Positions 44,795-63,762 of a stretch of DNA of 64,000 nucleotides are shown piece after piece. The notes beneath the pieces were generated by a model. That model searched no databases. It saw nothing but the letters and a program-made list of their open reading frames with translations, and had not been told where the DNA came from. Source of the stretch: Actinomycetaceae bacterium (GTDB taxonomy: Bacteria; Actinomycetota; Actinomycetes; Actinomycetales; Actinomycetaceae). Position numbers and translations under genes: made by a program. The first letter of the stretch is position 1. Every line of letters begins with the position of its first letter. Location of the stretch: positions 8,334 to 72,333 of the forward strand of contig JAUNHH010000005.1 of assembly GCA_030524055.1 (NCBI GenBank), read 5' to 3'.

Positions 44795-44867
44795 GGGGCT
44801 ATGGCGCAGTTGGTAGCGCGTCTCGTTCGCAATGAGAAGGTCAGGGGTTCGAATCCCCTTAGCTCCA
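44795..44867 (+). tRNA. tRNA-Ala (anticodon CGC)
   Basis: Manual fold: acceptor GGGGCTA/TAGCTCC with the G3·U70 Ala identity pair, D-arm GCGC-AGTTGGTA-GCGC, anticodon arm TCTCG-TTCGCAA-TGAGA (U33, CGC, A37), T-arm AGGGG-TTCGAAT-CCCCT, discriminator A. Confidence 0.85.
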
Positions 44868-44892
44868 CGTAAGATGAGAAGATCGAAACTTG

Positions 44893-44921: not shown

Positions 44922-45016
44922 CTGGGGTGACGTGGGCCGGGGCATCGATACTGGTGTGGGCGAGGACGCTGGCTGTGGTCTCGTCGGGTGTGTAGGTGGC
45001 GTTCTCTTCGTCGTCG

Positions 45017-45793
45017 ATGGTGATGCGGGTGAACAGGGCGTTGGTCGGCGTGAGCGTGAGGACGCTCCACCACTGGGATGACATTGGCTTGGTTGTTCCG
45101 CGACATCGGTCACGCTCTGGCTACCGTGCGTACGACGGCGATGACATCGGCCGGATTCACCGTGTGCTCATCTACCGAGAACTCGGATTCAGTCTCGCAA
45201 GCATTCAAGAAATCCTCGATGATCCCACCCTCGACGAGGAACAGCAACTCCGTCAGCAGAGACGGATCATCGGCGACCGGATCGGTCGGCTCTCCGAAAT
45301 GGCGGCAGGTATCGACCGGCTCCTAGCCGCGCGGGAAACAGGTACACGACTCTCGATGCAGGAGCAGGCGGAGATCTTCGGACAGGACTGGCGGCCGGAG
45401 TGGGCGGAGGAAGCATACGAGCGGTGGGGAGACTCGCGTGAATGGACGCAGTTCGAGCAGAACGTTGCGCATCTTTCCGCGGACGAACGCGCCAGGATTC
45501 ATGACCAGGGTGAAGCCATCCAGCGTGAGCTGGTCGAAGCGAAGCGGGCCGGCATCGCGCCGGGAACTGTCGAAGCCAACCGACTTGCCGAAGCTCACCG
45601 AGGTGCGATCAATCAGTTGTTCGCCTGCTCGCACTCGATGCACGCGGTCTTGGGACGCATGTATGTCGAGGACGAACGATTCACTGCGAACATCGACCGG
45701 TGGGAACCCGGTATGAGCGTGTGGTTGCGAGACGTGATCTTCGCCAACGCAGAGGCTCACGACGTTGACCCGACGCAAGCCGCATGGGAATGA
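45017..45793 (+). CDS. tipA: MerR-family regulator of the TipAL type (N-terminal MerR HTH + C-terminal TipAS antibiotic-recognition domain)
   Basis: …VRTLHHWDDIGLVVP… (MerR HTH) and a C-terminal segment closely matching TipAS from Streptomyces TipA as I recall it (GRMYVEDERFTANID vs GEMYVSDERFTRNID). Start set at internal ATG 45017; the track ORF begins at 44996. Confidence 0.75.
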   Translation: MVMRVNRALVGVSVRTLHHWDDIGLVVPRHRSRSGYRAYDGDDIGRIHRVLIYRELGFSLASIQEILDDPTLDEEQQLRQQRRIIGDRIGRLSEMAAGIDRLLAARETGTRLSMQEQAEIFGQDWRPEWAEEAYERWGDSREWTQFEQNVAHLSADERARIHDQGEAIQRELVEAKRAGIAPGTVEANRLAEAHRGAINQLFACSHSMHAVLGRMYVEDERFTANIDRWEPGMSVWLRDVIFANAEAHDVDPTQAAWE

Positions 45794-46313: not shown

Positions 46314-47210
46314 GTGAAGTGCATGCACGACACAACCCCGCTCCAGGACCGCGGCAACGGGACTCGCGGCGACCACACGGTCATCGATGATCCGAACCAT
46401 CCTATTTCGCGCCGGATTCGCGATGTCCTGCGCAATCGCTCCTCCAAGCCAAAGACCATCCTGATCGACGATCCCGAGAACATCGAGCAAGCTGCGCGAA
46501 GCGGCGTACAACTCGACAGCTTGTACGTGACCGAGGGACTGCCGCCTTCTTCAATCGGTGACACGCTTTCTGTCCACGGACGACTCCCCGTACACATGCT
46601 GTCTCGTGGGGTTGTTGACGGTCTGTTCGGCGACGAGAAGCGGGCGCGCGTTTTCGCCTTGGCGAACGCTCCTCGTCCCGCGCGGCTGAGCGACCTGTCT
46701 AGCGCGCAGGGCGACATCGTCGTACTCGATGGCGTACGCCTGATGGGCAACATCGGCGCGATCACCAGGACGTCTGCGGGATTCGGAGCCGCCGGTCTCG
46801 TTCTTCTGGAAAGTGGGTTACGGCATGTGTTTGATCGACGGCTAATCCGAGCAAGCAGAGGGCTCGTGTTCACCCTTCCCATCGTGCTCGCGACTCCCGA
46901 CGAGTTCGCTGATTACGTGCTCGGTGAGCGGACTGTCGTGAGCACACTGACGGCACATGCAATTGAACGACTCGAATCCGCCAGCGGTGTCCAGGACCGG
47001 ATGGCCATAGTTCTGGGCAGCGAACGTCATGGCGTATCAGAGAAACTCGATCGGCTTGCGAGCTACAGGTATGCCATCCCGATGTCGCCTGAGATTGATT
47101 CGCTCAACGTGTCCGTCGCGGCAGGAATCGCTCTTTACGAGCGGAACCGCTCACGCACCGCCAAGAACATGAAGGAAAAATCTGCTGGCCGATCCGTCGC
47201 GCGGTGGTGA
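46314..47210 (+). CDS. SpoU/TrmH-family rRNA 2'-O-methyltransferase of the thiostrepton/nosiheptide-resistance type (Tsr/NshR-like)
   Basis: From my recollection of Streptomyces azureus Tsr, close matches along the catalytic half: PRPARLSDLSSAQGDIVVLDGVRLMGNIGAITRTS (Tsr: [35 protein letters not shown]), RRLIRASRGLVFTLPIVL, IPMSPEIDSLNVSVAAGIALYER. SPOUT knot motifs are present. Confidence 0.75.
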   Translation: MKCMHDTTPLQDRGNGTRGDHTVIDDPNHPISRRIRDVLRNRSSKPKTILIDDPENIEQAARSGVQLDSLYVTEGLPPSSIGDTLSVHGRLPVHMLSRGVVDGLFGDEKRARVFALANAPRPARLSDLSSAQGDIVVLDGVRLMGNIGAITRTSAGFGAAGLVLLESGLRHVFDRRLIRASRGLVFTLPIVLATPDEFADYVLGERTVVSTLTAHAIERLESASGVQDRMAIVLGSERHGVSEKLDRLASYRYAIPMSPEIDSLNVSVAAGIALYERNRSRTAKNMKEKSAGRSVARW

Positions 47211-47402: not shown

Positions 47403-48132
47403 GTGACCGAACACACCCCGCCCGACGCGAGCGACGATGCCGCGGAAGCGGCTGGCTCGGAAGCATGACTTGGACCCTTGGCATATTGCCTCAGCGGCGT
47501 TCGAGGTCATGCTCGCCCCGTCGACGCGGAACGCAGGGAATCCGTGGGCTGTGGTCACCCGCGCGGTGCAGATCACTTGCAACACCGACATACGGGCTGC
47601 CGGACTGTTGGTATCTCCGAATCAGGCGCGTCACACCAAGTGACTCGCCGGATTCCACGACGCGGTGCGATTCGCCGAACGAGAAGGCCTCGCCGACTAC
47701 CATCCCGCGTTCGCCGTCCCTCCCGACGATGATGATGATCCAGAGTCCGGCGAGGACGACGGACGGGTCGCCACCGCTCTGTCGGATGCGGTGGCGCTGT
47801 TCGTCTCGGCGGGCTGGGACGCCGCGCTCGTGGCTGACTGCGTGGAGCACGTCGCCTATCGGCTGGCGGACTTGTCCTCACGACGGAGCGCCGTGGAGGT
47901 ACTGCGGCGCGACCGCACTGTCCCGAAGTTGCTGGGTCTGCCGCCACGGTCATGGGCTGCGCTGCTGCGGATCGTGCTGGGGCATCCCGCACCGAAGTAC
48001 AGGGGCACCCCGACCGGAGATGGCGCGCTGGTGCGCCTGCTGAACGGCGAACCGCTGGATTCACTCCGCCAGGATGACGCTCTGATGGAAGCGATCCGCG
48101 CCGCGAAGCCCAACCCGCCCCCTGGAGCGTGA
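47403..48132 (+). pseudogene. Interrupted paralogue of the 62899-63762 gene (in-frame TGA at ~47641-47643; divergent/shortened N-terminus)
   Basis: Track ORFs 47437..47643 and 47665..48132 lie in the same frame and together align with the intact 287-aa protein at 62899..63762 (…LDPW(H/E)(I/V)ASAAFEVMLAPSTRNA(G/S)NPWAVVTRAVQITC… and …CVEHVAYRLADLSSR…LRIVLGHPA…). An RBS-like GGGAGG is conserved upstream of both copies. Confidence 0.55.
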
Positions 48133-48534: not shown

Positions 48535-50019
48535 TCAGGCTTTGAAGGTGAGTTCGACGCGTTCGGGCCGGAACCTGGCCCCGCGTTTGCCGGGTTCTGC
48601 GGGTTTGACGATGAGGGTGTCGATCAAGGCGGCGATGATCGCGCGTTTCTGCGGGATCGACCACTCCGACTCCCACGCGTGCCGTAGTGCTTCCTCGTCG
48701 CCGATAGGGATGCCCTTCAGCGCCGAGGATTTCGCACTCCGCCCGAGGACGAGTTCGGCGTTGCTGATGATCGCGGTGGCGGCGGTCTTCGCGGCGTGCA
48801 GTTCGGTGCGGGAGAGCAGGCCCGCGCCGTAGTCGCGGGCCATGTCCTCCATGCGCTGCCTCGCGGCGGTGATCTGCTCCATCGCCGCACTGACCCCCGC
48901 GTCCGCATCCGGTGCTGCGGTGGGCAGGGTGGTCGCGGCCAGGCGGGTAATCATGGCCTCGCTCACCAGGGTTTCGATGCCGTGCGCGGACACGACGAGA
49001 CCGCCGCGCTCGGGCCTGCCGGGGAGGGGGAGGCAGCGGTAGAAGCGTCGCTTCCCGATGGAGGTCTCTCCTCGATGGAGTCCTGAGGAGACGAGGGTGT
49101 TGCCACATTTGGCGCAGGTGATCAACCCGGCCAGGAGGCTCTTGGAGGAGCGGCCCACGCGACGGTCGGGGTGGTTGAACACCGCCCGGATGCGCGCCGT
49201 CTCTTCCGGGGTGATGATCGCCTCCCAGTTCCCCGGCCCGAGAATCGCGCGGTCGCGGCGTTCCCACGTCGCCGTCGTCTTCGACGCGGGTTCGTAGGCC
49301 CGTTGCCCTGAGATACGTGCTGAGCAGAGGATTGAACCGACGGCGCTCTCGTGCCACACGTTCAACCGGCTCTTGCCTTTCGACGGCGGCACCGGCCCGC
49401 CGTCGCGGTTGAGCCACCTGGTGATCTGCCGCACCGACTGGCCCGCGAGGAACCGGTCGGCCATCTTGCGGATGACGGCTGCTTCTTCGGGGATGAGGAC
49501 GCCGCCGATGCCGTATCCGTACTTCGCGCCGCCGTGCCAGTCACCGCGCTCGGCCTTCTGCTGGTTCGCCCGCCGGATGCGGTCTGCCTTGTGCCCGGAC
49601 TCGTAGGAGGCGATCGCGACGAGCTGACGGGCCATCAACCGGCCTTCGTGGGTGTTCAGGTCGAACGCGCCGCCCTTGACGGTCTCGATTCTGATCGGGT
49701 GGGTTTCCACGGGGTCGATGAGGTCTTCCAGCTCGCGGGGGCGACGGTAGAGGCGATCCACATGCCACGCCACGATCCGCGACGGCCCCAGCTTCACCCG
49801 CTCCAACAGGTCGATGTAGCCGGGGCGCTTCTTGCCCGAGTACGCGGAGATGTCGTTGTCCATGAAGATCGCCGGATCGGTGATCCCGAGCCGCGCGCAC
49901 AGTTCCAGGCAGTCCTGGCGCTGCCGCTCGACCCCGGCCTCCGCGCCGGTACGATCCTCGGAGATACGCAGGTACACCACCACCTGCTCCACACCGCTGT
50001 TTGCTGTTGTGCCGTCCAT
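48535..50019 (-). CDS. Large serine recombinase (resolvase/invertase N-terminal catalytic domain + recombinase and zinc-ribbon domains)
   Basis: Start MDGTTANSGVEQVVVYLRISEDRTG… (catalytic Ser in the YLRIS context) preceded by AGGGAGG at 5-nt spacing; …DRLYRRPRELEDLI… resolvase domain; C-terminal Cys pairs (CAKCGNTL…RFYRCL) and a coiled coil. The track ORF (to 50826) extends into non-coding antisense of the adjacent fragment. Confidence 0.85.
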   Translation of the reverse strand: MDGTTANSGVEQVVVYLRISEDRTGAEAGVERQRQDCLELCARLGITDPAIFMDNDISAYSGKKRPGYIDLLERVKLGPSRIVAWHVDRLYRRPRELEDLIDPVETHPIRIETVKGGAFDLNTHEGRLMARQLVAIASYESGHKADRIRRANQQKAERGDWHGGAKYGYGIGGVLIPEEAAVIRKMADRFLAGQSVRQITRWLNRDGGPVPPSKGKSRLNVWHESAVGSILCSARISGQRAYEPASKTTATWERRDRAILGPGNWEAIITPEETARIRAVFNHPDRRVGRSSKSLLAGLITCAKCGNTLVSSGLHRGETSIGKRRFYRCLPLPGRPERGGLVVSAHGIETLVSEAMITRLAATTLPTAAPDADAGVSAAMEQITAARQRMEDMARDYGAGLLSRTELHAAKTAATAIISNAELVLGRSAKSSALKGIPIGDEEALRHAWESEWSIPQKRAIIAALIDTLIVKPAEPGKRGARFRPERVELTFKA

Positions 50020-50085
50020 GACGACCTCCCTCATTTTCCTGGTAGGTACGCCGGTCAAACCCGACACGTCGACAAGACAACCGCG

Positions 50086-50949
50086 ATGAACGCACTCCGC
50101 CGAGCCTGGGAAACCTCGCATGGTTCCGGGTCGGTGGTGGGGTTGGCGCCGTCGGCGGTGGCGGCGCAGGTGCTGGCCGACGATCTGGGGATCGCTACGG
50201 AGAACACGGCGAAGTGGTGGACCACCCACCAATACACCGGTGCCACCTTCCAGGCCGGGCAGCTCGTCATCATCGACGAAGCCTCCCTCGCCGGCACCCT
50301 CTCCCTGGACCGGATCACGCAGGCAGCGGAGGAGGCGGGGGCGAAAGTGCTGCTGGTCGGCGACTACGCCCAGCTCCAGTCCGTCGACGCAGGCGGTGCG
50401 TTCAGCCTCTTGATCCACGACCGCCACGATGCCCCCGAACTGGTCGATGTCCACCGCTTCACCCACGACTGGGAGAAGACCGCATCCCTGGAACTGCGGC
50501 ACGGCCGCACCCCAGTCATCGACACCTACCTCAACCACCATCGCATCCATGATGGTGACGTCGGGGCCATGACCGATGCCGCCTACACCGCCTGGCACCG
50601 AGACCGTCGGCAGGGTTTGGTGTCGGTGCTGATCGTCGAAACCCGCGAGAACGTCACCGCCCTCAACATCCGAGCCCGCGCCGACCTCATCCTTGACGGC
50701 ACGCTGAAGCCCGGCCCCGAAATCACCCTGTCCGACGGATCGGCAGCGGGCGTGGGGGACACGATCATCACCCGCCACAACGACCGGCGGCTGCGGAACC
50801 GGCACGGCTGGATCCGCAACGGCCAAACCTGGACCATCAGCCAGGTTCGGGGCGATGGGTCGGTCACGATCCGCCCACCCGGGGCCAGGTTCGGAAACAG
50901 CATCTTCCTACCCGCCGACTACGTGGCCGAGCACGTCGACCTCGGCTAG
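50086..50949 (+). pseudogene. Truncated MobF/TraA relaxase gene fragment (helicase core only; lacks the N-terminal relaxase domain and C-terminus)
   Basis: 288 codons aligning to the RecD-like helicase segment of TraA (…LVIIDEASLAGTLSLDRI…VLLVGDYAQLQSVDAGGAFSLL…VHRFTHDW…) at ~30-35% identity to the intact relaxase at 54565-58020. Begins 67 nt from the recombinase start. The track ORF 49351..50949 is spurious upstream of 50086. Confidence 0.7.
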
Positions 50950-51071
50950 CCGAGGTGCCCCAAACACACTCACCTGTGTTCGTGCGCGTGTGCGCGCTTC
51001 CAGCCTACTCCGCCGTCGATCGACGGCGCGGTCTATCTCGTCAGCCCTGTTGCTGTCGATATCCTTGAGAC

Positions 51072-51827
51072 ATGCACGAGGGGTCAGCGTTTACCAGCCA
51101 GCAGTGGCTCAGTGGGCTGCTGCCCGAGGTGAATTCCGCCCGGAGCGTACTCGCGTCCGCCGATCGCCTCCTGCGGCAAGACGGAGCCCTCGAACGTGAC
51201 CTCGATGCTGTCCTAGCGACTTACTCGATCGGTGTCGAACGACTCATGAAGCTCGCGCTTGGCACCGCAGCCGTCTCCAGAGGAGAAGGCTGGCCAACGA
51301 AAATGGGCTTCACCCGTGAGGGCTGGGGCCATGCCTTGGATGAGATGGACGAGCGGTTACGCTCCGAACTCCGCGAGGCAGTCGAGTCTGGCGACTGGGA
51401 GCGGAAACAGATGCTGCGCAACTGGATTTGCACCCTAGACAACGACCCCGTCTGGGCGGCGGTGGTGCGCACCCTGAGAAACTACGCAGACGCGGGCCGC
51501 TACCACCATCTCGACCAGGTGGCTGGCAAAGAGGTTAGCTCGCGATCATCGAGCGAGATGTGGGACGAGGCAGAGCGGGCGGCCATCGCCAGCTCATCTT
51601 CTCTCGCCGCCCATCACCAGCGAACGACGGAGGGCGCGGGCTTCGCGCCATTCGAACGCGAACTGCGCGCGGAAGTTGCCGACTCCATCAAACGCTGGGT
51701 TTCCATCGTCTGTTTGTGTGGCTTCCACGGCGTACTCGGTGAAGATTGGCGAGTTATCGGGGCTTCTGCGCTCCCCGATGATGCGTTGCCTGTCCGAGCG
51801 CTGCCGAACTGTGAGGCTCAGGCGTGA
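51072..51827 (+). CDS. Hypothetical protein (first gene of the AAA+ ATPase module)
   Basis: 251-aa ORF with coding-like composition and no recognisable motifs. GC visibly lower than the flanking island genes. Confidence 0.45.
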   Translation: MHEGSAFTSQQWLSGLLPEVNSARSVLASADRLLRQDGALERDLDAVLATYSIGVERLMKLALGTAAVSRGEGWPTKMGFTREGWGHALDEMDERLRSELREAVESGDWERKQMLRNWICTLDNDPVWAAVVRTLRNYADAGRYHHLDQVAGKEVSSRSSSEMWDEAERAAIASSSSLAAHHQRTTEGAGFAPFERELRAEVADSIKRWVSIVCLCGFHGVLGEDWRVIGASALPDDALPVRALPNCEAQA

Positions 51828-51849
51828 CGATCCGCACGAGAGACTTCAG

Positions 51850-53079
51850 ATGACGACTCTGCTGCCAGGTGAGTTTGAGGATGAAGAGCCCGACATCATC
51901 GAAGGGCAATTGTTCCGGGTCCTAACCAATGTCGATGGCTCAGTCTTGCTTGAGCTGCGGAACGGCAACACGGCCCGCGCCAACGGCTCGGGCCTGGCTG
52001 GTTTGCAGCCCGGAGACGTCTTCCTGCTTGCGGACGGTCGGGTCGAGCAACTCCCCGCTGAGTCATGGCCGGCTGGTGATCGCACTGGAACCGTCGTGTG
52101 GGCTGGGAACACCGATATCGTCGTGAAGTCAGCTGGCTCTACCTATAGCTTCCGGCAGCGAGCCGACGTTCCCTTCAAGAAGGGGCAAACGGTTCGGCTC
52201 GGACCAGATGGCCAACCGATCGCCGTGATTGCAGACGAACCCATTGACGACCTCAGCATCCTCCGCGACGATGACTTCGACCCGGAGTCCCTCGTTGTCC
52301 GAAAAGAAGATAACACCACGTCCCTCGAGGATTTCGGCGGCAACACGACGCTCGTCCGCCGCACTCTCGACCTCGCGACCGTGGCGCTTTTGCCCGACGA
52401 TCCATTGCGGACGATGGGAGTAAACCCGATCAAAGGCATGCTCTTCAGTGGCCCCTCTGGCACGGGAAAAACATTCCTTGCTCGGGCTCTCGCTGCCAAG
52501 CTCGATGCTTCTTTCTACAACGTCGGCGGGCCTATGATTGTCGACAAATTCGTCGGCCAGACTGAGCGTCGGCTCCGCGAAATCTTCGAGCATGCGCAAG
52601 TCAACGGTCCCGCGATTCTCTTCTTCGACGAGATCGATAGCTTGTACACGCAACGGGGCGAACGCAACCACGAGGCAACCAACCGGCTCGTTGGACAGTT
52701 CCTGTCGCTCCTTGACGGTTTCGTGGCGTACGACCGAGTGCTCATCATTGCGACGACAAACCTTCCCGGAGCGCTTGATGACGCGCTCCTGCGCCCTGGA
52801 CGACTGGGGCACAAGCTCGTCTTCTCCTTGCCGTCCGAGGATGACAGAGTTCAGATTCTCACGGCATCGAGTCGCAAGGTGACATTCCGAGAGGCGCCAG
52901 ACCTGTCAGCGCTGGCCCAACTCACGGACGGCTGGACAGCGGCCGACCTCGCTGCGATCTGGACCGAGGCCGGTCTTGCCGCGACCCTCGACCATAGGAA
53001 ATCCATCGCTTGGGAAGACATCCTCATCGGTGTTGAGGCGGTTGACCGCGACCGAAGAACCCAAGTGAAGGCAGAGTGA
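51850..53079 (+). CDS. Classic-clade AAA+ ATPase with ~150-aa N-terminal domain of unknown function
   Basis: Walker A GPSGTGKTFLARALA, Walker B ILFFDEIDSL, sensor-1/SRH ATTNLPGALDDALLRPGRLGHKLVF (FtsH/Cdc48/SpoVK-like). N-terminal domain (MTTLLPGEFEDEEPDIIEGQLFRVLTNVDGSVLLELRNGN…) unassigned. Start at internal ATG 51850; the track ORF begins at 51676. Confidence 0.8.
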   Translation: MTTLLPGEFEDEEPDIIEGQLFRVLTNVDGSVLLELRNGNTARANGSGLAGLQPGDVFLLADGRVEQLPAESWPAGDRTGTVVWAGNTDIVVKSAGSTYSFRQRADVPFKKGQTVRLGPDGQPIAVIADEPIDDLSILRDDDFDPESLVVRKEDNTTSLEDFGGNTTLVRRTLDLATVALLPDDPLRTMGVNPIKGMLFSGPSGTGKTFLARALAAKLDASFYNVGGPMIVDKFVGQTERRLREIFEHAQVNGPAILFFDEIDSLYTQRGERNHEATNRLVGQFLSLLDGFVAYDRVLIIATTNLPGALDDALLRPGRLGHKLVFSLPSEDDRVQILTASSRKVTFREAPDLSALAQLTDGWTAADLAAIWTEAGLAATLDHRKSIAWEDILIGVEAVDRDRRTQVKAE

Positions 53080-53237
53080 TGACTATCTGGAACCGCAAGC
53101 GCAATGAAATCCGTGACCGCCACCGCGAGTTCATCTATCTGGACGAAGTGAGTGTTGTCAGCCTTCTCGCCGGCCTTCAAGGCGAGATTAAGGACGCCGT
53201 CACCGATATCCTCTCGCGTACAGAAGACCACAGTTAG
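53079..53237 (+). CDS. Small ORF (52 aa) translationally coupled to the AAA+ ATPase gene (ATGA overlap)
   Basis: MTIWNRKRNEIRDRHREFIYLDEVSVVSLLAGLQGEIKDAVTDILSRTEDHS; too short for the ORF track. May instead be the N-terminus of the next gene separated by a frameshift (the next ORF's frame is open from 53192 and has only a weak RBS). Confidence 0.3.
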   Translation: MTIWNRKRNEIRDRHREFIYLDEVSVVSLLAGLQGEIKDAVTDILSRTEDHS

Positions 53238-53272
53238 GAGGGACCCTCGGCACGGCGAAGGCCGGTGCCAGC

Positions 53273-54382
53273 GTGGAGTCACGCCTTGGCACATCGCGGA
53301 GCTCGACCAACGAAGTTGTCCGACGTGCGGTCATCCAAAGCACGTTCCGGGACCTCTGGCGACGCGACGTCGGGGTTCTCCTTCACGACATCTCGGGGAT
53401 CAAGCGTAGGCTTCGCAAGCCGATCCACTCGTACCGCGATCTTGAAAATGCACTTCCACGTTTAAAGAAGGCGAAACTGGCCGTCCCCCTGGGCAACATC
53501 CACCGCGGCGACATCGTGGAGATGGACATCAAGGTAGAAGCCGATCAGTTCTTCAAGATGATCACGGTGGGTACCACATTCCTCGATCTCATGAACGGTC
53601 GAGAGGACCTGTTCGGCGTCTCGGCTGCGGACGTTCGTGAGGTCGCACCAATGATCGAGGTACTTAAGGAGCTTCTCGTTGGACTCGTTCCCATGCGGGG
53701 GGTAGCCACGAGCCACAGCGTCATCGAGGTGGCCGGTGAGCAGGTCGCAATCGCAACAGAGCTTCTAGGCAACGAAGTGCAGGGAGGCGCAAGACCTCTC
53801 GAACTGGTCGGCTTCGCTGAAGCCAACTCCTTCTGGCGCGACCTCCGTCGGACACTGTTCTCACCTTCCACCTTCACCGTCTACGCCCGGGCCGAAGGAC
53901 CTACGCTCAGTTCACCATGGTCCCCGATCAAAATCGCGGACCTCCTCGAATCCCTGTCGCCTGATCTCCGTGATGAGGTAGTGCTCCCACTACAACAGCT
54001 TGACCTCGGCAACACCCAGCTGATCGAGACTCCCGAGGCAGGGGCCACCGCTCAGTTTCAACTAAACAACTTCGCCGCTGCGCTCCAAGCGGCCTCGGGC
54101 GCAAGCCCTGATGCCGCTTCGGTCAATAGGGCCGTCGAAACTGCCATTCCGGCACTCGCTTCTGCAACGACCATTGAGGAGCGGCGTCGCGCCTTTGAAC
54201 CTGTCGCCCAGGCTGTAGCAGGCGAGAACGTCGACCGAGACCTACTGCTGACAATCAGAAATGACTGGATCAATCGACTCCCCACGTCCGCGCCGAGCAC
54301 CTCTACGGCTCCTCTTCAACAGCCCGAACCTTACGCGCCACCAGTTCAGCTCGAAGTCGGGTTCGTCGCACTGTACTGGTGA
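53273..54382 (+). CDS. Hypothetical protein (last gene of the AAA+ ATPase module)
   Basis: 369-aa ORF, GTG start, coding-like composition; no recognisable catalytic motif. Confidence 0.45.
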   Translation: MESRLGTSRSSTNEVVRRAVIQSTFRDLWRRDVGVLLHDISGIKRRLRKPIHSYRDLENALPRLKKAKLAVPLGNIHRGDIVEMDIKVEADQFFKMITVGTTFLDLMNGREDLFGVSAADVREVAPMIEVLKELLVGLVPMRGVATSHSVIEVAGEQVAIATELLGNEVQGGARPLELVGFAEANSFWRDLRRTLFSPSTFTVYARAEGPTLSSPWSPIKIADLLESLSPDLRDEVVLPLQQLDLGNTQLIETPEAGATAQFQLNNFAAALQAASGASPDAASVNRAVETAIPALASATTIEERRRAFEPVAQAVAGENVDRDLLLTIRNDWINRLPTSAPSTSTAPLQQPEPYAPPVQLEVGFVALYW

Positions 54383-54564
54383 GCAACCAACCAGGCGGAC
54401 ACGCCATCTTCATCTTCCACGCGCGCTGTAATCCCTTACGCTCAGCGCGTGTCCACTTAGGACTTGACTGACGAGTGGGGCGAGATCAGATATGGATACC
54501 TGACATCTGATGACCGTCGACACAGATTGCCTTGCGCGCCAGCAGGTGCGTGCCCCGAGAACCG

Positions 54565-57500
54565 CTACAGGCCGCGTGTTGGCCCGTCCCGGCGTGCCCC
54601 GCTGCGGTGACGGTCGTGCTCGATAGGGTCACTGATCTGCCGCTGTCGCTCCAGCACCTGCTGTCGCTGGTTCTCCCGCTCGGCGCGTTTCGTCTCAATC
54701 TGTCGGGCGGCGGCGTTCACGGGCAGCATGCGCAGTTCGTTGGCCTCAGCCCGGGCCAGGGCGGCTCTCGCGCGGGCGTCTTGAACGTTGCGGTGCGGGC
54801 TGATCGTGCTCATACCGAACTGAGCGCGGCGGGCGTGGTCGATCCCGTACTCGCTGACGAGCAACGCCGTGCGTTCCTGCCGGTGCCGCTTCCGCATCGT
54901 TTCGCGGTCGGCGGTGGCGGCTTCGACGGTCTCCGCGGCCTCAGCCACGCGGGGGTCTGCCTCGGCGCGGTTCGCGGCGACCTTGCTTGCCCATTCTGGG
55001 AGACGATCAGGGTTCGCCGGTGTGGTGCCCCACTCGGTTCTGACCTGCCCGCGCAACGTCCGGGTGCGCTCGGTCGCGGCCTGGTGCTCGGTACGGGCTT
55101 TGCGTCTGCCGAACCTGCCTACGGTAGCGAGGCGACCACGGGCGGCGGCCTCGTCTACGACCGCATCGAGGTACGCGGCACCATCGCGCTCAGCCTGCAC
55201 CGTCAGTGGCCGGGTGACCTCAGCACGCACCTGCTCGGCGGCGTCTTCGGCCTTGCGGAGCGCACCAGCGCTCTCGTTGTCTTCGGCTCGATGGGTCGAA
55301 CGTTGAGCGCCGAACCTGGCGGCGATCTGCTCCCACCGTTCCGCTGCCCGTTCCGCTCGTTCGGCTTCGTGGTTGAGGCGGGCGAGTTCTTCGGTGACCA
55401 GTCTCACGGGGCCGTCTGTGACGAATCCGCGCACCGCCTCTCTCGCGGCGCGGATGGCGTGGTCGAGGCCCTGGTCTGCGGGGTCGCGTTCCATCGCCTC
55501 GATGAACTGCGCCCTGGCGTCGGCCATGTCCTCGGCAACGATGTGGAGCCGGTTGGTCTGACGGCCTCGGGTCATGCCGACGTAGACCCCTGCCGCGCTC
55601 GTCGCCTCCGACAGCATCGTGTGCGAACTGCCCACGGTTGCGCCTTGGACGCCATAGGCGGTCGCGGCGTAGGACAGGTGCGCGTGCTCACCCACATACT
55701 CGGCAGGTAGGGTGACGGTGCGGGGGTTCTTGCGCCCGGTGCCGACCTCACGGGCATAGACGGTGCCGTCGTTCTCGACGTGTTGGACGATCCACTGCTG
55801 CCGGTTCGCCACCCCCACATCGCTGTCGTTGCGGCGGGTCTGGATGAGGTCACCCGCTCCGATGCTCAGCCCGTCGCTGCCGGTCGCCGTCACAGTGTCG
55901 TCAACCTCGCCCGCCTCGACACGTCCGGCGCGGATGCGCTCGTTCAACGCGGTGGCTTCATGGTTGGTCGCCACGGTGATCGCCTCGCCCTGGTGGGCGT
56001 GGTCAGTGATGTGCTCGCGAACCCGCTCATCATCAGCGTGCAGTATCACGAGCCCCATGGCGGTGAGTCGGTCGAACACTTCGCCGGGGTTCTCCCGGTC
56101 GCGCATCGTCAACGTGAGTGCCGCGTACTCTGCGTCAGTGAACCGGTGGAGTTCGGTCATGTCGTAGGTGCGGCCCCTGATCTGCGCGGCCATGTCGAGC
56201 ACCCCGCCCCGGCCGACGGCGGGGAGTTGTGCGCGGTCGCCGACGAACGCGATGGTTGCGCCTGCCTCGGCGGCGATGGTGAGGAGTGCGTGGGCGGTGT
56301 CTTGGTCGAGCATCCCGGCCTCGTCCACAATCACCCGCTCACCCCACGACAGCACAGCATCGCGAGCGGGGCCGGTGAAGGTGCTCCCGGTGCCGGGGTC
56401 GGTGTCGCCGGGTGCGAGGCGCACCCAAAGGCCATCGGAGTTCCAGCGCCATCCGTGCGCGTGCACGAGCGCTGCAACACTCGTGGCGGGAACGCCGAGT
56501 TCTTCGTGTGCGACCTGCGCCGCGCGTAGCGTGGGTGCAACCACCCGCGACGCACGCCCGTGCTCGGCGGCGACGTCGATGGCGGTGCGCAGCATCGTCG
56601 TCTTCCCGCTCCCCGCAGCACCCTCCACGATCACCAACGGATCGGCCGATGCCACCGCCGCCGCAGCCACCGTCTGCCCCTCATCCAGCCACGCCCTGAG
56701 CGCAGCCTCGATCACGTCCGGATGCTCCGGTTCATGCTCCGGCACAGCCGCGGCCAGGCGGTCGCGGAGCGCGGTCTCGGCGGCGACCACGGTGAGGCTG
56801 GTCAGGTGCGCGACATGCTCCGGCGTTGCGGCCTCCGGCGGGAGCACGGAGAAGCAATCCGCGACCGCAAGGTCGGTCGCTATCGCGATGAACTCGCGCA
56901 ACTCAGCGGGGGTTGCTTGCACGCCGTGTTCAGTGGTGATGCGGGTGACATGCTCCTGCACCGTGTGTGTCGTCCATGCCGATGATGCGGCGGCGCAGCG
57001 ATCCAGCGCCCGCGATGCAACCTCCTGCACCGCAAGATCATCCACCCGCACCGGGCGCCGCACGGTGCTGCGTCGAGGTGCAGCGGGGTTGTATCCGGCG
57101 TCGGTGAGTTCTTGCGCCCACCACTGCTCGTTCTTCAGATCAGCGGGCTGCTTCCCGGGCCGCTGGTGCGTCCAGGCGATGCCCTGCAACCTGGCCGTCA
57201 TCACCGGGCCGAGCACTTCGCCGGGATGCGCCGCTTCCCATTCGGCTTCGAGACGGTCAAGGTTGCGCCTGATCTGCGCCGACCGCTTCGACATCACCCC
57301 ATTGAACGGCTGCAACTCCGCCACCTCACCGGAGACGGGATCGAGGGTCAGGCCATGCTCCGCGAGGGTCTGTGTGAGGTGCGGGTGTGCGGCGATGACC
57401 GCGGTGCCGAGGGCGCGGATCGCGCCCTGCTGCTTGAACAACGCCGCAGTATCGAGCGCCCGCCATTTCCCAGCCGCCCACACCCGAGTACCGATCTGCA

Positions 57501-58020
57501 TATGGATATGCCGGTGAGGATCGCCCGCCCGCGATGTCTTGTGCCGGATGCCGACGACCTGCATCTGCTCGATAGGGATGACTTCTCGCGCGTCGCGCGG
57601 CCCGACTCTCGTGACGGAGTGCTGGCCGAGCCACCGCCGAATCTCCGCCAGAGCGTCCTGCTGAGCCTGATCGAGAGCGGCGGAGACTTTGGGGTGGAGG
57701 GCGGCGGCAACCGACAAGCTCTTGGGCGCGTTGATCGTCATTTCCGCAAACAACGGCGACCCCTTCGACCCCTCGCCGGGCTTGCGTGGGGTGCCCATCA
57801 ACTCGCCCGCGATCGGGTCTGTCCAGTCCACCCACCCCTCATACTCCTCGGCGGTCAGGGAACGGGTAACCGTCACCTCGCCGTGGGCGTCGAGCACCGC
57901 GTACTCGGCGACGGCGTTGTCCGCGCCAAGATAGTACTCGTCGGCGCGGGAGCGGTCGGCCTCGACATAGCGGCGCGCGGCAGCACCGCTACCGCGGAAC
58001 AGGATCACGCCGCCCTTCAT
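54565..58020 (-). CDS. traA: MobF-family conjugative relaxase TraA (TrwC-type relaxase + RecD-like helicase)
   Basis: 1151 aa; N-terminal relaxase domain with the His triad (…DPHRHIHMQIG…); central helicase with Walker A GAAGSGKTT and …VIVDEAGMLDQ…; strong RBS GAGAGGAGG upstream of the ATG at 58020. Confidence 0.85.
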   Translation of the reverse strand: MKGGVILFRGSGAAARRYVEADRSRADEYYLGADNAVAEYAVLDAHGEVTVTRSLTAEEYEGWVDWTDPIAGELMGTPRKPGEGSKGSPLFAEMTINAPKSLSVAAALHPKVSAALDQAQQDALAEIRRWLGQHSVTRVGPRDAREVIPIEQMQVVGIRHKTSRAGDPHRHIHMQIGTRVWAAGKWRALDTAALFKQQGAIRALGTAVIAAHPHLTQTLAEHGLTLDPVSGEVAELQPFNGVMSKRSAQIRRNLDRLEAEWEAAHPGEVLGPVMTARLQGIAWTHQRPGKQPADLKNEQWWAQELTDAGYNPAAPRRSTVRRPVRVDDLAVQEVASRALDRCAAASSAWTTHTVQEHVTRITTEHGVQATPAELREFIAIATDLAVADCFSVLPPEAATPEHVAHLTSLTVVAAETALRDRLAAAVPEHEPEHPDVIEAALRAWLDEGQTVAAAAVASADPLVIVEGAAGSGKTTMLRTAIDVAAEHGRASRVVAPTLRAAQVAHEELGVPATSVAALVHAHGWRWNSDGLWVRLAPGDTDPGTGSTFTGPARDAVLSWGERVIVDEAGMLDQDTAHALLTIAAEAGATIAFVGDRAQLPAVGRGGVLDMAAQIRGRTYDMTELHRFTDAEYAALTLTMRDRENPGEVFDRLTAMGLVILHADDERVREHITDHAHQGEAITVATNHEATALNERIRAGRVEAGEVDDTVTATGSDGLSIGAGDLIQTRRNDSDVGVANRQQWIVQHVENDGTVYAREVGTGRKNPRTVTLPAEYVGEHAHLSYAATAYGVQGATVGSSHTMLSEATSAAGVYVGMTRGRQTNRLHIVAEDMADARAQFIEAMERDPADQGLDHAIRAAREAVRGFVTDGPVRLVTEELARLNHEAERAERAAERWEQIAARFGAQRSTHRAEDNESAGALRKAEDAAEQVRAEVTRPLTVQAERDGAAYLDAVVDEAAARGRLATVGRFGRRKARTEHQAATERTRTLRGQVRTEWGTTPANPDRLPEWASKVAANRAEADPRVAEAAETVEAATADRETMRKRHRQERTALLVSEYGIDHARRAQFGMSTISPHRNVQDARARAALARAEANELRMLPVNAAARQIETKRAERENQRQQVLERQRQISDPIEHDRHRSGARRDGPTRGL

Positions 58021-62898: not shown

Positions 62899-63762
62899 GT
62901 GGACGAGCACCTTATACCCCGCGCAGACGGCGCTACAGGTCCGGCTGGTTCGGCCGACCACGGCTTCGAGAGCCCGGAACGGCTACGCGCCCTGCTCACC
63001 CGTTTACAGGACGCTGGGCCGGGCGCGCGGCGGGGTGACCGTGAAGCGACAGAACTCATGCGCTACACCGCCATCAAGTACCGTCCGCTCGCGCGGAAGC
63101 ACGGGCTGGACCCCTGGGAGGTCGCGTCGGCCGCGTTCGAGGTGATGCTCGCGCCTTCGACGCGCAACGCTAGCAATCCGTGGGCGGTGGTCACCCGCGC
63201 GGTGCAGATCACCTGTCACGCTGAGGCTCGTGCCGCTGGGATGCTGACCTCGGCCAGCAAGGTGCGTCACACCACTCGGATCGTTGGGTTCCATGATGCC
63301 GTGCGGTTCTCCGAGCGAGAGCGCTTGGCCGACTATCACCCCGCGTTCACGCACCACGATGACGGCGACGCGGACGAGAGCGCACAAGAGCCGCGGGTGG
63401 CCGCTCTGCTGTCTGCCACGGTCGCGCTGTTCGAGTCCGCGGGCTGGGATACCGCGCTGGTCGGCGAGTGCGTGGAGCATGTGGCCTACCGGCTTGCCGA
63501 TCTGTCATCACGATCCCGAGCGGTCGAGGTGCTGCGACGTGACCACACAACCCCGATGCTGCTCGGTCTGCCGCAGCGGTCCTGGACCGCTCTGCTGAGG
63601 ATCGTCCTGGGACATCCCGCATCGAAACACACCGGAACGCCCACTGGCGACGGCGTACTGCTACGCCTACTGAACGGCGAAACCCTGGACACCCTGCGGA
63701 ACGACGAAGCACTGATCGAGGCGATCCGCGCCGCCTGCCCCGACAAGCACACCGCTCGATGA
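62899..63762 (+). CDS. Hypothetical protein (intact copy of the duplicated island gene)
   Basis: 287 aa, GTG start preceded by GGGAGG; paralogue of the interrupted copy at 47403-48132. Confidence 0.55.
   Translation: MDEHLIPRADGATGPAGSADHGFESPERLRALLTRLQDAGPGARRGDREATELMRYTAIKYRPLARKHGLDPWEVASAAFEVMLAPSTRNASNPWAVVTRAVQITCHAEARAAGMLTSASKVRHTTRIVGFHDAVRFSERERLADYHPAFTHHDDGDADESAQEPRVAALLSATVALFESAGWDTALVGECVEHVAYRLADLSSRSRAVEVLRRDHTTPMLLGLPQRSWTALLRIVLGHPASKHTGTPTGDGVLLRLLNGETLDTLRNDEALIEAIRAACPDKHTAR

Follow-up and report, generated by a model that had tools for sequence, protein, structure and literature searches.

The window analysed here is a stretch of 64,000 nucleotides from an Actinomycetaceae bacterium (assembly GCA_030524055.1, contig JAUNHH010000005.1, positions 8,334 to 72,333). 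Within it, positions 51072-54382 carry a gene for an AAA+ ATPase immediately followed by a gene of the DUF6414 family (Pfam PF19952), which together form a two-gene operon that resembles the anti-phage system Dodola, is probably a defence cassette, and has its second gene broken in this copy. A further gene, designated ORF1, precedes the pair. An initial annotation had described the open reading frames (ORFs) of this segment as co-oriented and tightly packed, and the ORF listing bears this out, with all of them on the plus strand and only 22 nt separating ORF1 from the ATPase gene in the same orientation. The genes, and the fragments into which the last of them is divided, are as follows.

51072-51827, plus strand: ORF1, an all-alpha protein of 251 aa from a narrow family
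51850-53079, plus strand: AAA+ ATPase gene, first of the pair, intact, 409 aa from its ATG (ORF open from 51676)
53079-54382, plus strand: whole DUF6414 gene, second of the pair, 434 aa when intact, broken here
53076/53079-53237, plus strand: N-terminal DUF6414 fragment of 53/52 aa, the 52-aa small ORF of the initial annotation
53273-54382, plus strand: C-terminal DUF6414 fragment of 369 aa (frame open from 53192), the 369-aa hypothetical protein of the initial annotation

The two fragments, first read as separate proteins, match the same Pfam family at complementary positions: 1-35 in the 52-aa ORF (E 7.1e-08, 33 bits) and 57-247 in the 369-aa ORF (E 2.8e-24, 86.8 bits), both scoring above the family gathering threshold of 25 bits. 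Positions 56-438 of our own profile of the DUF6414 family are matched by 53273-54382, while the 52-aa fragment is in register with, and identical to, residues 1-52 of an intact homologue (P0001). DNA alignment with two near-identical loci revealed that one T is missing from a TTT run at 53233 (TTT to TT), which puts an in-frame TAG at 53235-53237. This 1-nt deletion is the sole indel in 51072-54382 relative to L001 and L003 (homologous loci are given L numbers), and translation after restoring the missing T yields a full-length DUF6414 protein. Because of the complementary PF19952 positions and the missing T, the two ORFs are to be seen as halves of one 434-aa gene, so that three genes are present here, with the last one broken by the frameshift. 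A programmed frameshift at 53233 was considered and rejected: all 68 DUF6414 homologues (68/68) are single uninterrupted proteins, typically of 433-437 aa and every one with PF19952 listed, and the site (AGT TAG G) lacks a slippery or prfB-like context. The top homologue, from Brachybacterium fresconis, shares 98% identity.

The DUF6414 gene of the window is thus either a pseudogene or the victim of a homopolymer sequencing error in the T run, and, provided that the base call is correct, the window copy of the cassette is apparently non-functional. Compared with L001, the repaired gene has a dN/dS of ~1.0, a value that comes from about a dozen substitutions with only 5 window-specific residues; among the changes is a Pro that follows the invariant motif DLRRTLF. 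Such a ratio might be a sign of decay after the frameshift; since it rests on very few changes, the lesion would be recent or artefactual. With the more divergent Gulosibacter locus (L004) as reference, dN/dS is 0.09 for ORF1, 0.11 for the ATPase gene and 0.15 for the DUF6414 gene, meaning that all three have been under purifying selection. The junction of the pair also differs from the first description, which had an ATGA overlap between the small ORF and the ATPase stop: the ATPase stop and DUF6414 start overlap by 1 nt (TGATG), an overlap of 4 nt being obtained only with a GTG start, and the intact loci have the same arrangement. Translation of the second gene is coupled to that of the first.

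The coupling of the two genes is strict. Hidden Markov models (HMMs) were built for the DUF6414 protein, the ATPase, the ATPase N-terminal domain and ORF1, and were used to scan the homologous loci. An ATPase with the same N-terminal domain lies directly upstream of the DUF6414 gene, on the same strand, in ~95 of 98 loci, that is, in all those with upstream DNA, the loci left out being L033 and L061, which begin at a contig edge, and L048, which is cut. Even contigs with DUF6414 homologues of down to 29% identity all have a gene of 407-433 aa with PF00004 and AAA_lid_3 directly upstream on the same strand, with the stop of one gene and the start of the next overlapping or nearly so, usually overlapping. 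When all flanking ORFs of the 89 non-redundant loci were clustered, no third conserved gene was found. The strict pairing and the lack of a third conserved gene indicate that the functional unit is a two-gene AAA+/DUF6414 operon. The gene-neighbourhood conservation that had been envisaged for four genes therefore holds for the pair, often with defence or mobile genes nearby, but not for the four genes together.

ORF1 behaves differently. According to the HMM scan, it accompanies the pair only in the shallow clade of the window (L001-L005, L020-L022, L024) and is absent from every more distant AAA-DUF6414 locus, and homologues with 55-74% identity occur without the pair (L099/L100, L101, L102), which makes it an independent or accessory gene. 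The same data bear on the view of the segment as a single operon of four components (an unknown protein, the AAA+ ATPase, a small ORF and a second unknown protein) acting together. The co-orientation and tight spacing would agree with it, as would the joint travel of ORF1, AAA and DUF6414 genes at 95-98% identity in several genera. In its four-gene form that view is refuted by the frameshift, which makes the small ORF and the 369-aa ORF one gene, and with ORF1 missing from the more distant loci and found elsewhere without the pair it must be regarded as highly improbable; the four-ORF module gives way to a two-gene operon plus an independent ORF1.

Damaged copies of the pair were observed in other loci. 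In L078 (3351-5914) the ATPase gene is broken by an IS3-type transposase and the DUF6414 gene is full length, in L046 (4713-5951) the ATPase is split and DUF6414 intact, and in L096 (5884-8606) the DUF6414 gene is split by an insertion of ~1.1 kb and the ATPase intact. Together with the window, these copies indicate that either partner can be lost without the other, in a sample that is small and includes metagenome-assembled genomes (MAGs).

The pair is widespread and sporadic. Relatives were confirmed in 155 of ~185,000 species-representative genomes, from at least six phyla (155 stretches confirmed, 79 loci kept), the taxa comprising Actinomycetota, Chloroflexota/Dehalococcoidia, Acidobacteriota, Alpha- and Betaproteobacteria and Ignavibacteria. 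An exhaustive profile search with DUF6414 gave 710 clusters at 50% identity, 475 of them at E<=1e-30; the matches listed, the best 150 of the 710, are all close relatives. By tblastn, the same pair was found on plasmids of Streptomyces californicus, Novosphingobium resinovorum, Tsukamurella and Halobacterium salinarum, the distant DUF6414 partners scoring 86-169 bits with PF19952, and plasmid searches with actinobacterial and haloarchaeal DUF6414 members returned only loci of the AAA-DUF6414 type. A megablast of plasmids with the whole window module gave no match. The haloarchaeal pair is present in L019 (H. salinarum plasmid pKBTZ01_286, 50300-52830), where it adjoins an integrase and a SIR2-family gene, and on other large haloarchaeal plasmids, which means that the AAA-DUF6414 cassette crosses the boundary between bacteria and archaea.

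The window ATPase is a classic-clade AAA+ protein, as the initial annotation had recognised from its Walker A (GPSGTGKT), Walker B (FFDEID) and second region of homology (SRH). Translation and Pfam agree on this assignment, with matches to PF00004 (AAA, 6.2e-36, 124 bits) and PF17862 (AAA_lid_3, 3.6e-10, 39.6 bits), and the protein further displays a KFVG pore loop, the sensor-1 Asn and RPGR arginine fingers. Across 9 orthologues reaching down to 36% identity (alignment A4), there is no variation in the Walker A and B motifs, the pore-loop glycine, the sensor-1 Asn or the RPGR arginine fingers, and most sequences retain the complete KFVG loop. The invariance of these motifs predicts an active hexameric translocase, and judging from its clade the ATPase is likely to act as a hexamer that translocates or unfolds proteins. 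Its single AAA module is preceded by a family-specific N-terminal domain that measures ~185 aa, longer than the ~150 aa initially proposed. This domain had no Pfam match, its profile had no sequence match in the PDB, and a query of a word-indexed protein database with it returned only 5 fragments. A by-eye reading of the domain as two OB-like repeats found no support, as hhalign of the two halves gave a probability of only 1.7%.

The closest NCBIfam models for the ATPase are PAN, Cdc48 and FtsH, and its best PDB profile matches are the D1 and D2 modules of p97/Cdc48. With PAN, Mpa/ARC, Cpa, VAT and p97 it shares the AAA clade, pore loop 1, the SRH arginine fingers and AAA_lid_3. It differs from the PAN, Mpa and Cdc48 types in having a single AAA module, no C-terminal tail of the HbYX type and the sporadic occurrence of a mobile gene, and its N-terminal domain has no detectable similarity to the OB or double-psi-barrel N-domains of proteasomal and Cdc48 unfoldases. 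Such relatives, a pore loop and arginine fingers kept as in translocating unfoldases, and the lack of a detected nuclease or other toxic effector domain might point to accessory protein quality control, in which a PAN/Mpa/Cdc48-like unfoldase would serve host physiology with the DUF6414 protein as adaptor or substrate. This role is nevertheless improbable. All NCBIfam scores lie far under the family cut-offs (PAN 190 against 500, pup_AAA 112 against 505), with alignments beginning past the N-domain, and none of the neighbourhoods inspected contains proteasome, Pup or protease genes. In addition, the sporadic distribution, the near-identical copies in different genera, the atypical GC content and the island-like contexts are those of accessory mobile traits.

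As for the DUF6414 protein, an AlphaFold2 (AF2) model presents a disordered basic N-terminal tail, a conserved strand-helix (REFIYLDEVSV), long helices, an arginine-rich OB-like beta-barrel, a C-terminal helical bundle and a last strand ending in YW. The invariant residues of the family are mostly Arg, Lys and Trp (alignment A2). Three stretches stand out: the nearly invariant N-terminal motif REFIYLDEVSV.SLLA, located after the basic disordered tail, the invariant D-x-RR motif (WRDLRR), and the invariant C-terminus ...LEV.FVA.YW-COOH seen in the same alignment. By analogy with HbYX, a free docking tail could be imagined for the terminal ...YW, which is unlikely given that AF2 has residues 423-433 as a confident beta-strand inside the fold.

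Among the named systems, Dodola is the only one that joins a DUF6414 protein with an AAA+ partner; it was reportedly described by Millman et al. in 2022, though their preprint does not name it in its text. It consists of a DUF6414 protein (DolA) and a ClpB-related ATPase (10.1101/2024.10.26.620412). Experiments in B. subtilis and S. thermophilus have validated it as a broad-spectrum anti-phage system, with a mechanism that is unknown (PMC11514479; 10.1101/2024.10.22.618286). The window family resembles it in having two genes, for a DUF6414 protein and for an AAA+ ATPase with one AAA module behind an N-terminal domain, in the lack of a recognisable enzymatic effector in either system, and in its residence in variable or defence-type loci; this Dodola-type unit of a DUF6414 gene next to an AAA+ gene occurs in all loci with upstream DNA. 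Several differences set the two apart. The Dodola ATPase is ClpB/AAA_2-like, whereas that of the window belongs to the classic clade (PF00004 plus AAA_lid_3), with AAA_2 reaching 18.3 bits, under its cut-off of 27. The gene order, ATPase and then DUF6414, is the reverse of that in Dodola. The DUF6414 proteins of the window family have ~434 aa, with a C-terminal helical bundle and a terminal ...YW, and the Pfam model is ~150 shorter, at 283 positions. Finally, the family is found mainly in Actinomycetota, Chloroflexota, Alphaproteobacteria and haloarchaea. A match to the DolB profile was obtained with the Halobacterium orthologue alone, and it is weak and lies at the P-loop (8.8e-05). In the literature searched PF19952 is not mentioned, and DUF6414 is mentioned by a single paper.

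The first reading had found no named system for the segment. This holds insofar as the Dodola HMMs fail to detect it, and does not insofar as Dodola, which had been overlooked, is the nearest named system. The exclusion of CBASS, Qat, IetAS, PARIS, Gabija and Lamassu stands, since PADLOC gave only partial matches of IetA and TRIP13 to the AAA core. IetAS, said to go back to Gao et al. 2020 and to pair the AAA+ ATPase IetA with the subtilisin-like protease IetS, comes closest in architecture, with a classic-type AAA+ ATPase bearing an N-terminal extension and one partner in a two-gene operon. IetA is indeed the top PADLOC match of the window ATPase (1.8e-31), in the AAA core only (model positions 111-319 of 374), and the NCBIfam model IteA_antiphage, whose cut-off is 510, scored 99.7 bits. 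The partner of IetA is a subtilisin-like serine protease and that of the window ATPase a DUF6414 protein, and Pfam detected no protease domain in either the DUF6414 partner or ORF1, so that the IetS component is missing. The TRIP13 match (1.1e-14) is likewise confined to the AAA core, and no HORMA or CD-NTase gene accompanies it in the window flanks or the homologous loci, as would be expected for CBASS Cap6/TRIP13.

The genomic contexts of the pair are those of an accessory gene set. A 4.4-kb block (50128-54571) has 95-98% DNA identity to L001-L003, the blastn alignments extending over 50128-54571 for L001/L002 and over 50757-54571 for L003, and is ~85% identical in Gulosibacter, where the same relaxase follows. 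The DUF6414 protein of Brevibacterium metallidurans (L024) is identical to P0001, and that of a Propionibacteriaceae MAG (L020) is 93% identical. That the copies in Brachybacterium, Brevibacterium and Propionibacteriaceae, hence in different genera, are nearly identical (93-100% at the protein level) points to recent horizontal spread as cargo. Over the whole family, the 113 nearest neighbours of the pair are spread over 105 Pfam families. HsdR is encoded directly upstream, on the same strand and within ~0.7-1.1 kb, in L035, L042, L074 and L095, and type I restriction-modification genes also lie upstream in L015 (590-6787), giving five unrelated loci with HsdR or full hsdMSR. Tyrosine integrases adjoin the pair in five loci (L040, L073, L080, L084, L094), IS3 transposases are near it in six, and TrwC relaxases also recur. 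Other neighbours include Gabija GajA/GajB, a type III restriction endonuclease and DndB; TIR_2 and STAND-like AAA_16; ApeA_NTD1; AAA_15/21; Fic/Phd, HicA and CHAT; SIR2 with an integrase; and HEPN-NTase with RelE/ParE. This pattern fits a self-contained accessory cassette residing in variable islands.

These neighbourhoods bear also on a role in the maintenance of mobile elements, either by addiction, with the ATPase neutralising a toxic DUF6414 protein in the manner of toxin-antitoxin (TA) systems, or by exclusion or entry control, instead of phage defence. The genes of the window clade lie between relaxase-type genes of MOBF elements, homologues are found on plasmids and near integrases, recombinases and TA genes, and the tight coupling of both genes is itself TA-like. 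Across the 89 non-redundant loci, however, the pair is tied to no conjugation or partition gene, and proteins of 409 and 434 aa far exceed typical TA components. The losses of single partners (L078, L046, L096 and the window) also argue, weakly, against either partner being a toxin that is lethal unless the other is present. A maintenance function is accordingly held to be unlikely.

Strict pairing, variable neighbourhoods rich in mobile and defence genes, and the Pfam family held in common with Dodola are the reasons for favouring, with moderate confidence, a Dodola-like anti-phage or anti-mobile-element defence system as the function of the AAA+/DUF6414 pair. The pair is accordingly regarded as a Dodola-like variant, as yet uncharacterised and probably serving in defence, that the models of PADLOC-DB v2.0.0 fail to detect. 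Several observations weigh against this assignment. The placement of DolA in the DUF6414 family comes from a statement in a literature review and not from sequence comparison. With PADLOC-DB v2.0.0, no profile, DolA included, matched the window fragments at E<=0.1, the intact P0001 at E<=10 or four distant DUF6414 partners, and that of DolB had no match to the window ATPase. No catalytic effector domain could be recognised in the ATPase or in the DUF6414 protein, and the AF2 model of the latter is of moderate confidence (pLDDT 72). The adjacency to defence genes is qualitative, lacking a genome-wide control, and the nearest neighbours also include housekeeping genes, such as ribonucleotide reductase in three loci. 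To these points may be added a scan of IMG/VR viral contigs, which contained no copy of the pair; the result is neutral as regards defence and shows that the pair is not typical prophage cargo. The initial proposal of a defence candidate on a mobile element therefore suits the neighbourhoods of the homologues, with the reservation that the window copy is apparently inactivated.

If the pair is a defence system, the DUF6414 protein would act as the specificity or sensor-effector subunit. The ATPase might then use its family-specific N-domain to engage either the DUF6414 protein or a phage target presented by it, and ATP-driven threading or remodelling would activate the effector or dismantle the target, thereby blocking the phage or plasmid. 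Were the DUF6414 protein itself threaded, the process would be expected to start at its disordered basic N-tail. Each of these steps, taken singly, is doubtful at best. A more general and equally tentative idea is that the pair represents a distinct immune family of bacteria and archaea with an "unfoldase immunity", whereby DUF6414 would recognise a protein or nucleic acid of the phage or plasmid and hand the target to a proteasome-ATPase-like hexamer that unfolds or strips it, with no need for a nuclease, NADase or membrane effector. Dodola would in that case represent the Clp-type branch of the same principle.

Independently of the mechanism, the family shows that DUF6414 is obligately paired also with a second, unrelated AAA+ clade, of the PAN/Cdc48 type and with intact pore loops. 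Its pairing with two AAA+ clades suggests that what is essential is the combination of a DUF6414 protein with a hexameric unfoldase. The DUF6414/classic-AAA+ pairing spans ~700 sequence clusters in bacteria and haloarchaea, and thus offers a larger and more diverse sequence set for the structural and genetic dissection of Dodola-type logic. In the present genome the cassette is the cargo of a MOBF-type element and is apparently dead.

With regard to ORF1, it may itself be a single-gene defence candidate. Its homologues without the pair occur in three kinds of setting: ahead of genes for a 233-aa protein and for AbiLi/AbiLii in L099/L100 (L099, 5544-9208), directly after a DUF3800 gene in L101 (6865-8765), where an Eco57I-type enzyme and also a serine recombinase are encoded nearby, and alone in L102 (490-1233). 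Its fold is possibly HEPN-like. No Pfam HEPN family matched it and Foldseek returned no significant match. Solo HEPN-type Abi and defence proteins carry a canonical Rx4-6H motif, which ORF1 lacks, its conserved stretch being RNYADAGRYHHLD. In this stretch (R136-N-Y-A-D-A-G-R143-Y-H145-H146-L-D) the spacing from R to H is 8 or 1-2, and not 4-6. An R82-x4-H87 is present, but R82 is not conserved.

The segment is bordered by the following features, which Pfam confirms to be, as initially described, a serine recombinase next to a relaxase remnant on one side and a MobF relaxase on the other.

48535-50100, minus strand: large serine recombinase (Pfam Resolvase 3.4e-23, Recombinase 1.3e-12)
50107-50949, plus strand: 3' remnant of a BTAD/AAA_30 helicase gene, relaxase-like, of the TraI-helicase type (Pfam AAA_30 6.3e-45)
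between 50949 and ORF1: spacer of 122 nt, part of the co-travelling DNA 50128-51071
54565-58020, minus strand: TrwC/MobF relaxase of 1151 aa, convergent with the pair (Pfam TrwC 1.5e-39, AAA_30 1e-40)

The serine recombinase gene abuts the helicase/relaxase-like gene and apparently truncates it. An intact 551-aa version of the latter is present in L001/L002, and by blastn the homology of the window to these loci begins only at 50128, from which it follows that the helicase gene has had its 5' part replaced by the segment with the recombinase. On the other side, the relaxase is 84% identical to that of the Gulosibacter locus, and clustering of the flanking ORFs identified a TrwC relaxase as a neighbour of the pair also in Propionibacteriaceae and Pseudoclavibacter loci besides Gulosibacter. 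In the window, L004, L020 and L022 the pair directly adjoins a TrwC relaxase, which could be taken to mean that the two genes are conjugation accessories of the MOBF element, for instance a relaxosome or coupling helper ATPase. The relaxase link is limited, though, to one shallow clade, the homologues elsewhere having no relaxases, and the ATPase is of the classic AAA type and not of the VirB4, VirD4 or TraG type, which leaves such a role with very little probability.

A drop in GC content in the segment had also been noted by eye (~58-60% against ~68-70%). The drop is real: 51072-54382 has 60.6% GC, with a GC3 of 66-71%, compared with 66.8-67.0% and a GC3 of 81-87% in the flanks. This lower GC and the MOBF-type context sustain the view of a separately acquired cargo within a mobile region. 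The window as a whole is in two parts, with ~57% GC up to ~44-47 kb and ~67% beyond, and with its 60.6% the segment comes closer to the former than to the island in which it lies.

A direct repeat (47451-48104 and 63087-63734, 73% identity over 656 bp) brackets ~15 kb with the recombinase, the AAA+/DUF6414 locus, the relaxase and TetR/MFS genes. In the first copy, a 155-aa ORF (47665-48132) resembles a truncated paralogue of a 287-aa ORF (62899-63762) that had no Pfam match, and both copies match one and the same gene, of 286 aa, in the Gulosibacter element (L004, 16716-17576). Further upstream, a tRNA-Ala(CGC) gene (44795-44868) is followed by a TipAS/MerR-type regulator (44996-45793), near which lies a thiostrepton-resistance-type rRNA methylase (46314-47210, TSNR_N plus SpoU); located at the border of the high-GC region, regulator and methylase together resemble a thiopeptide-resistance pair.

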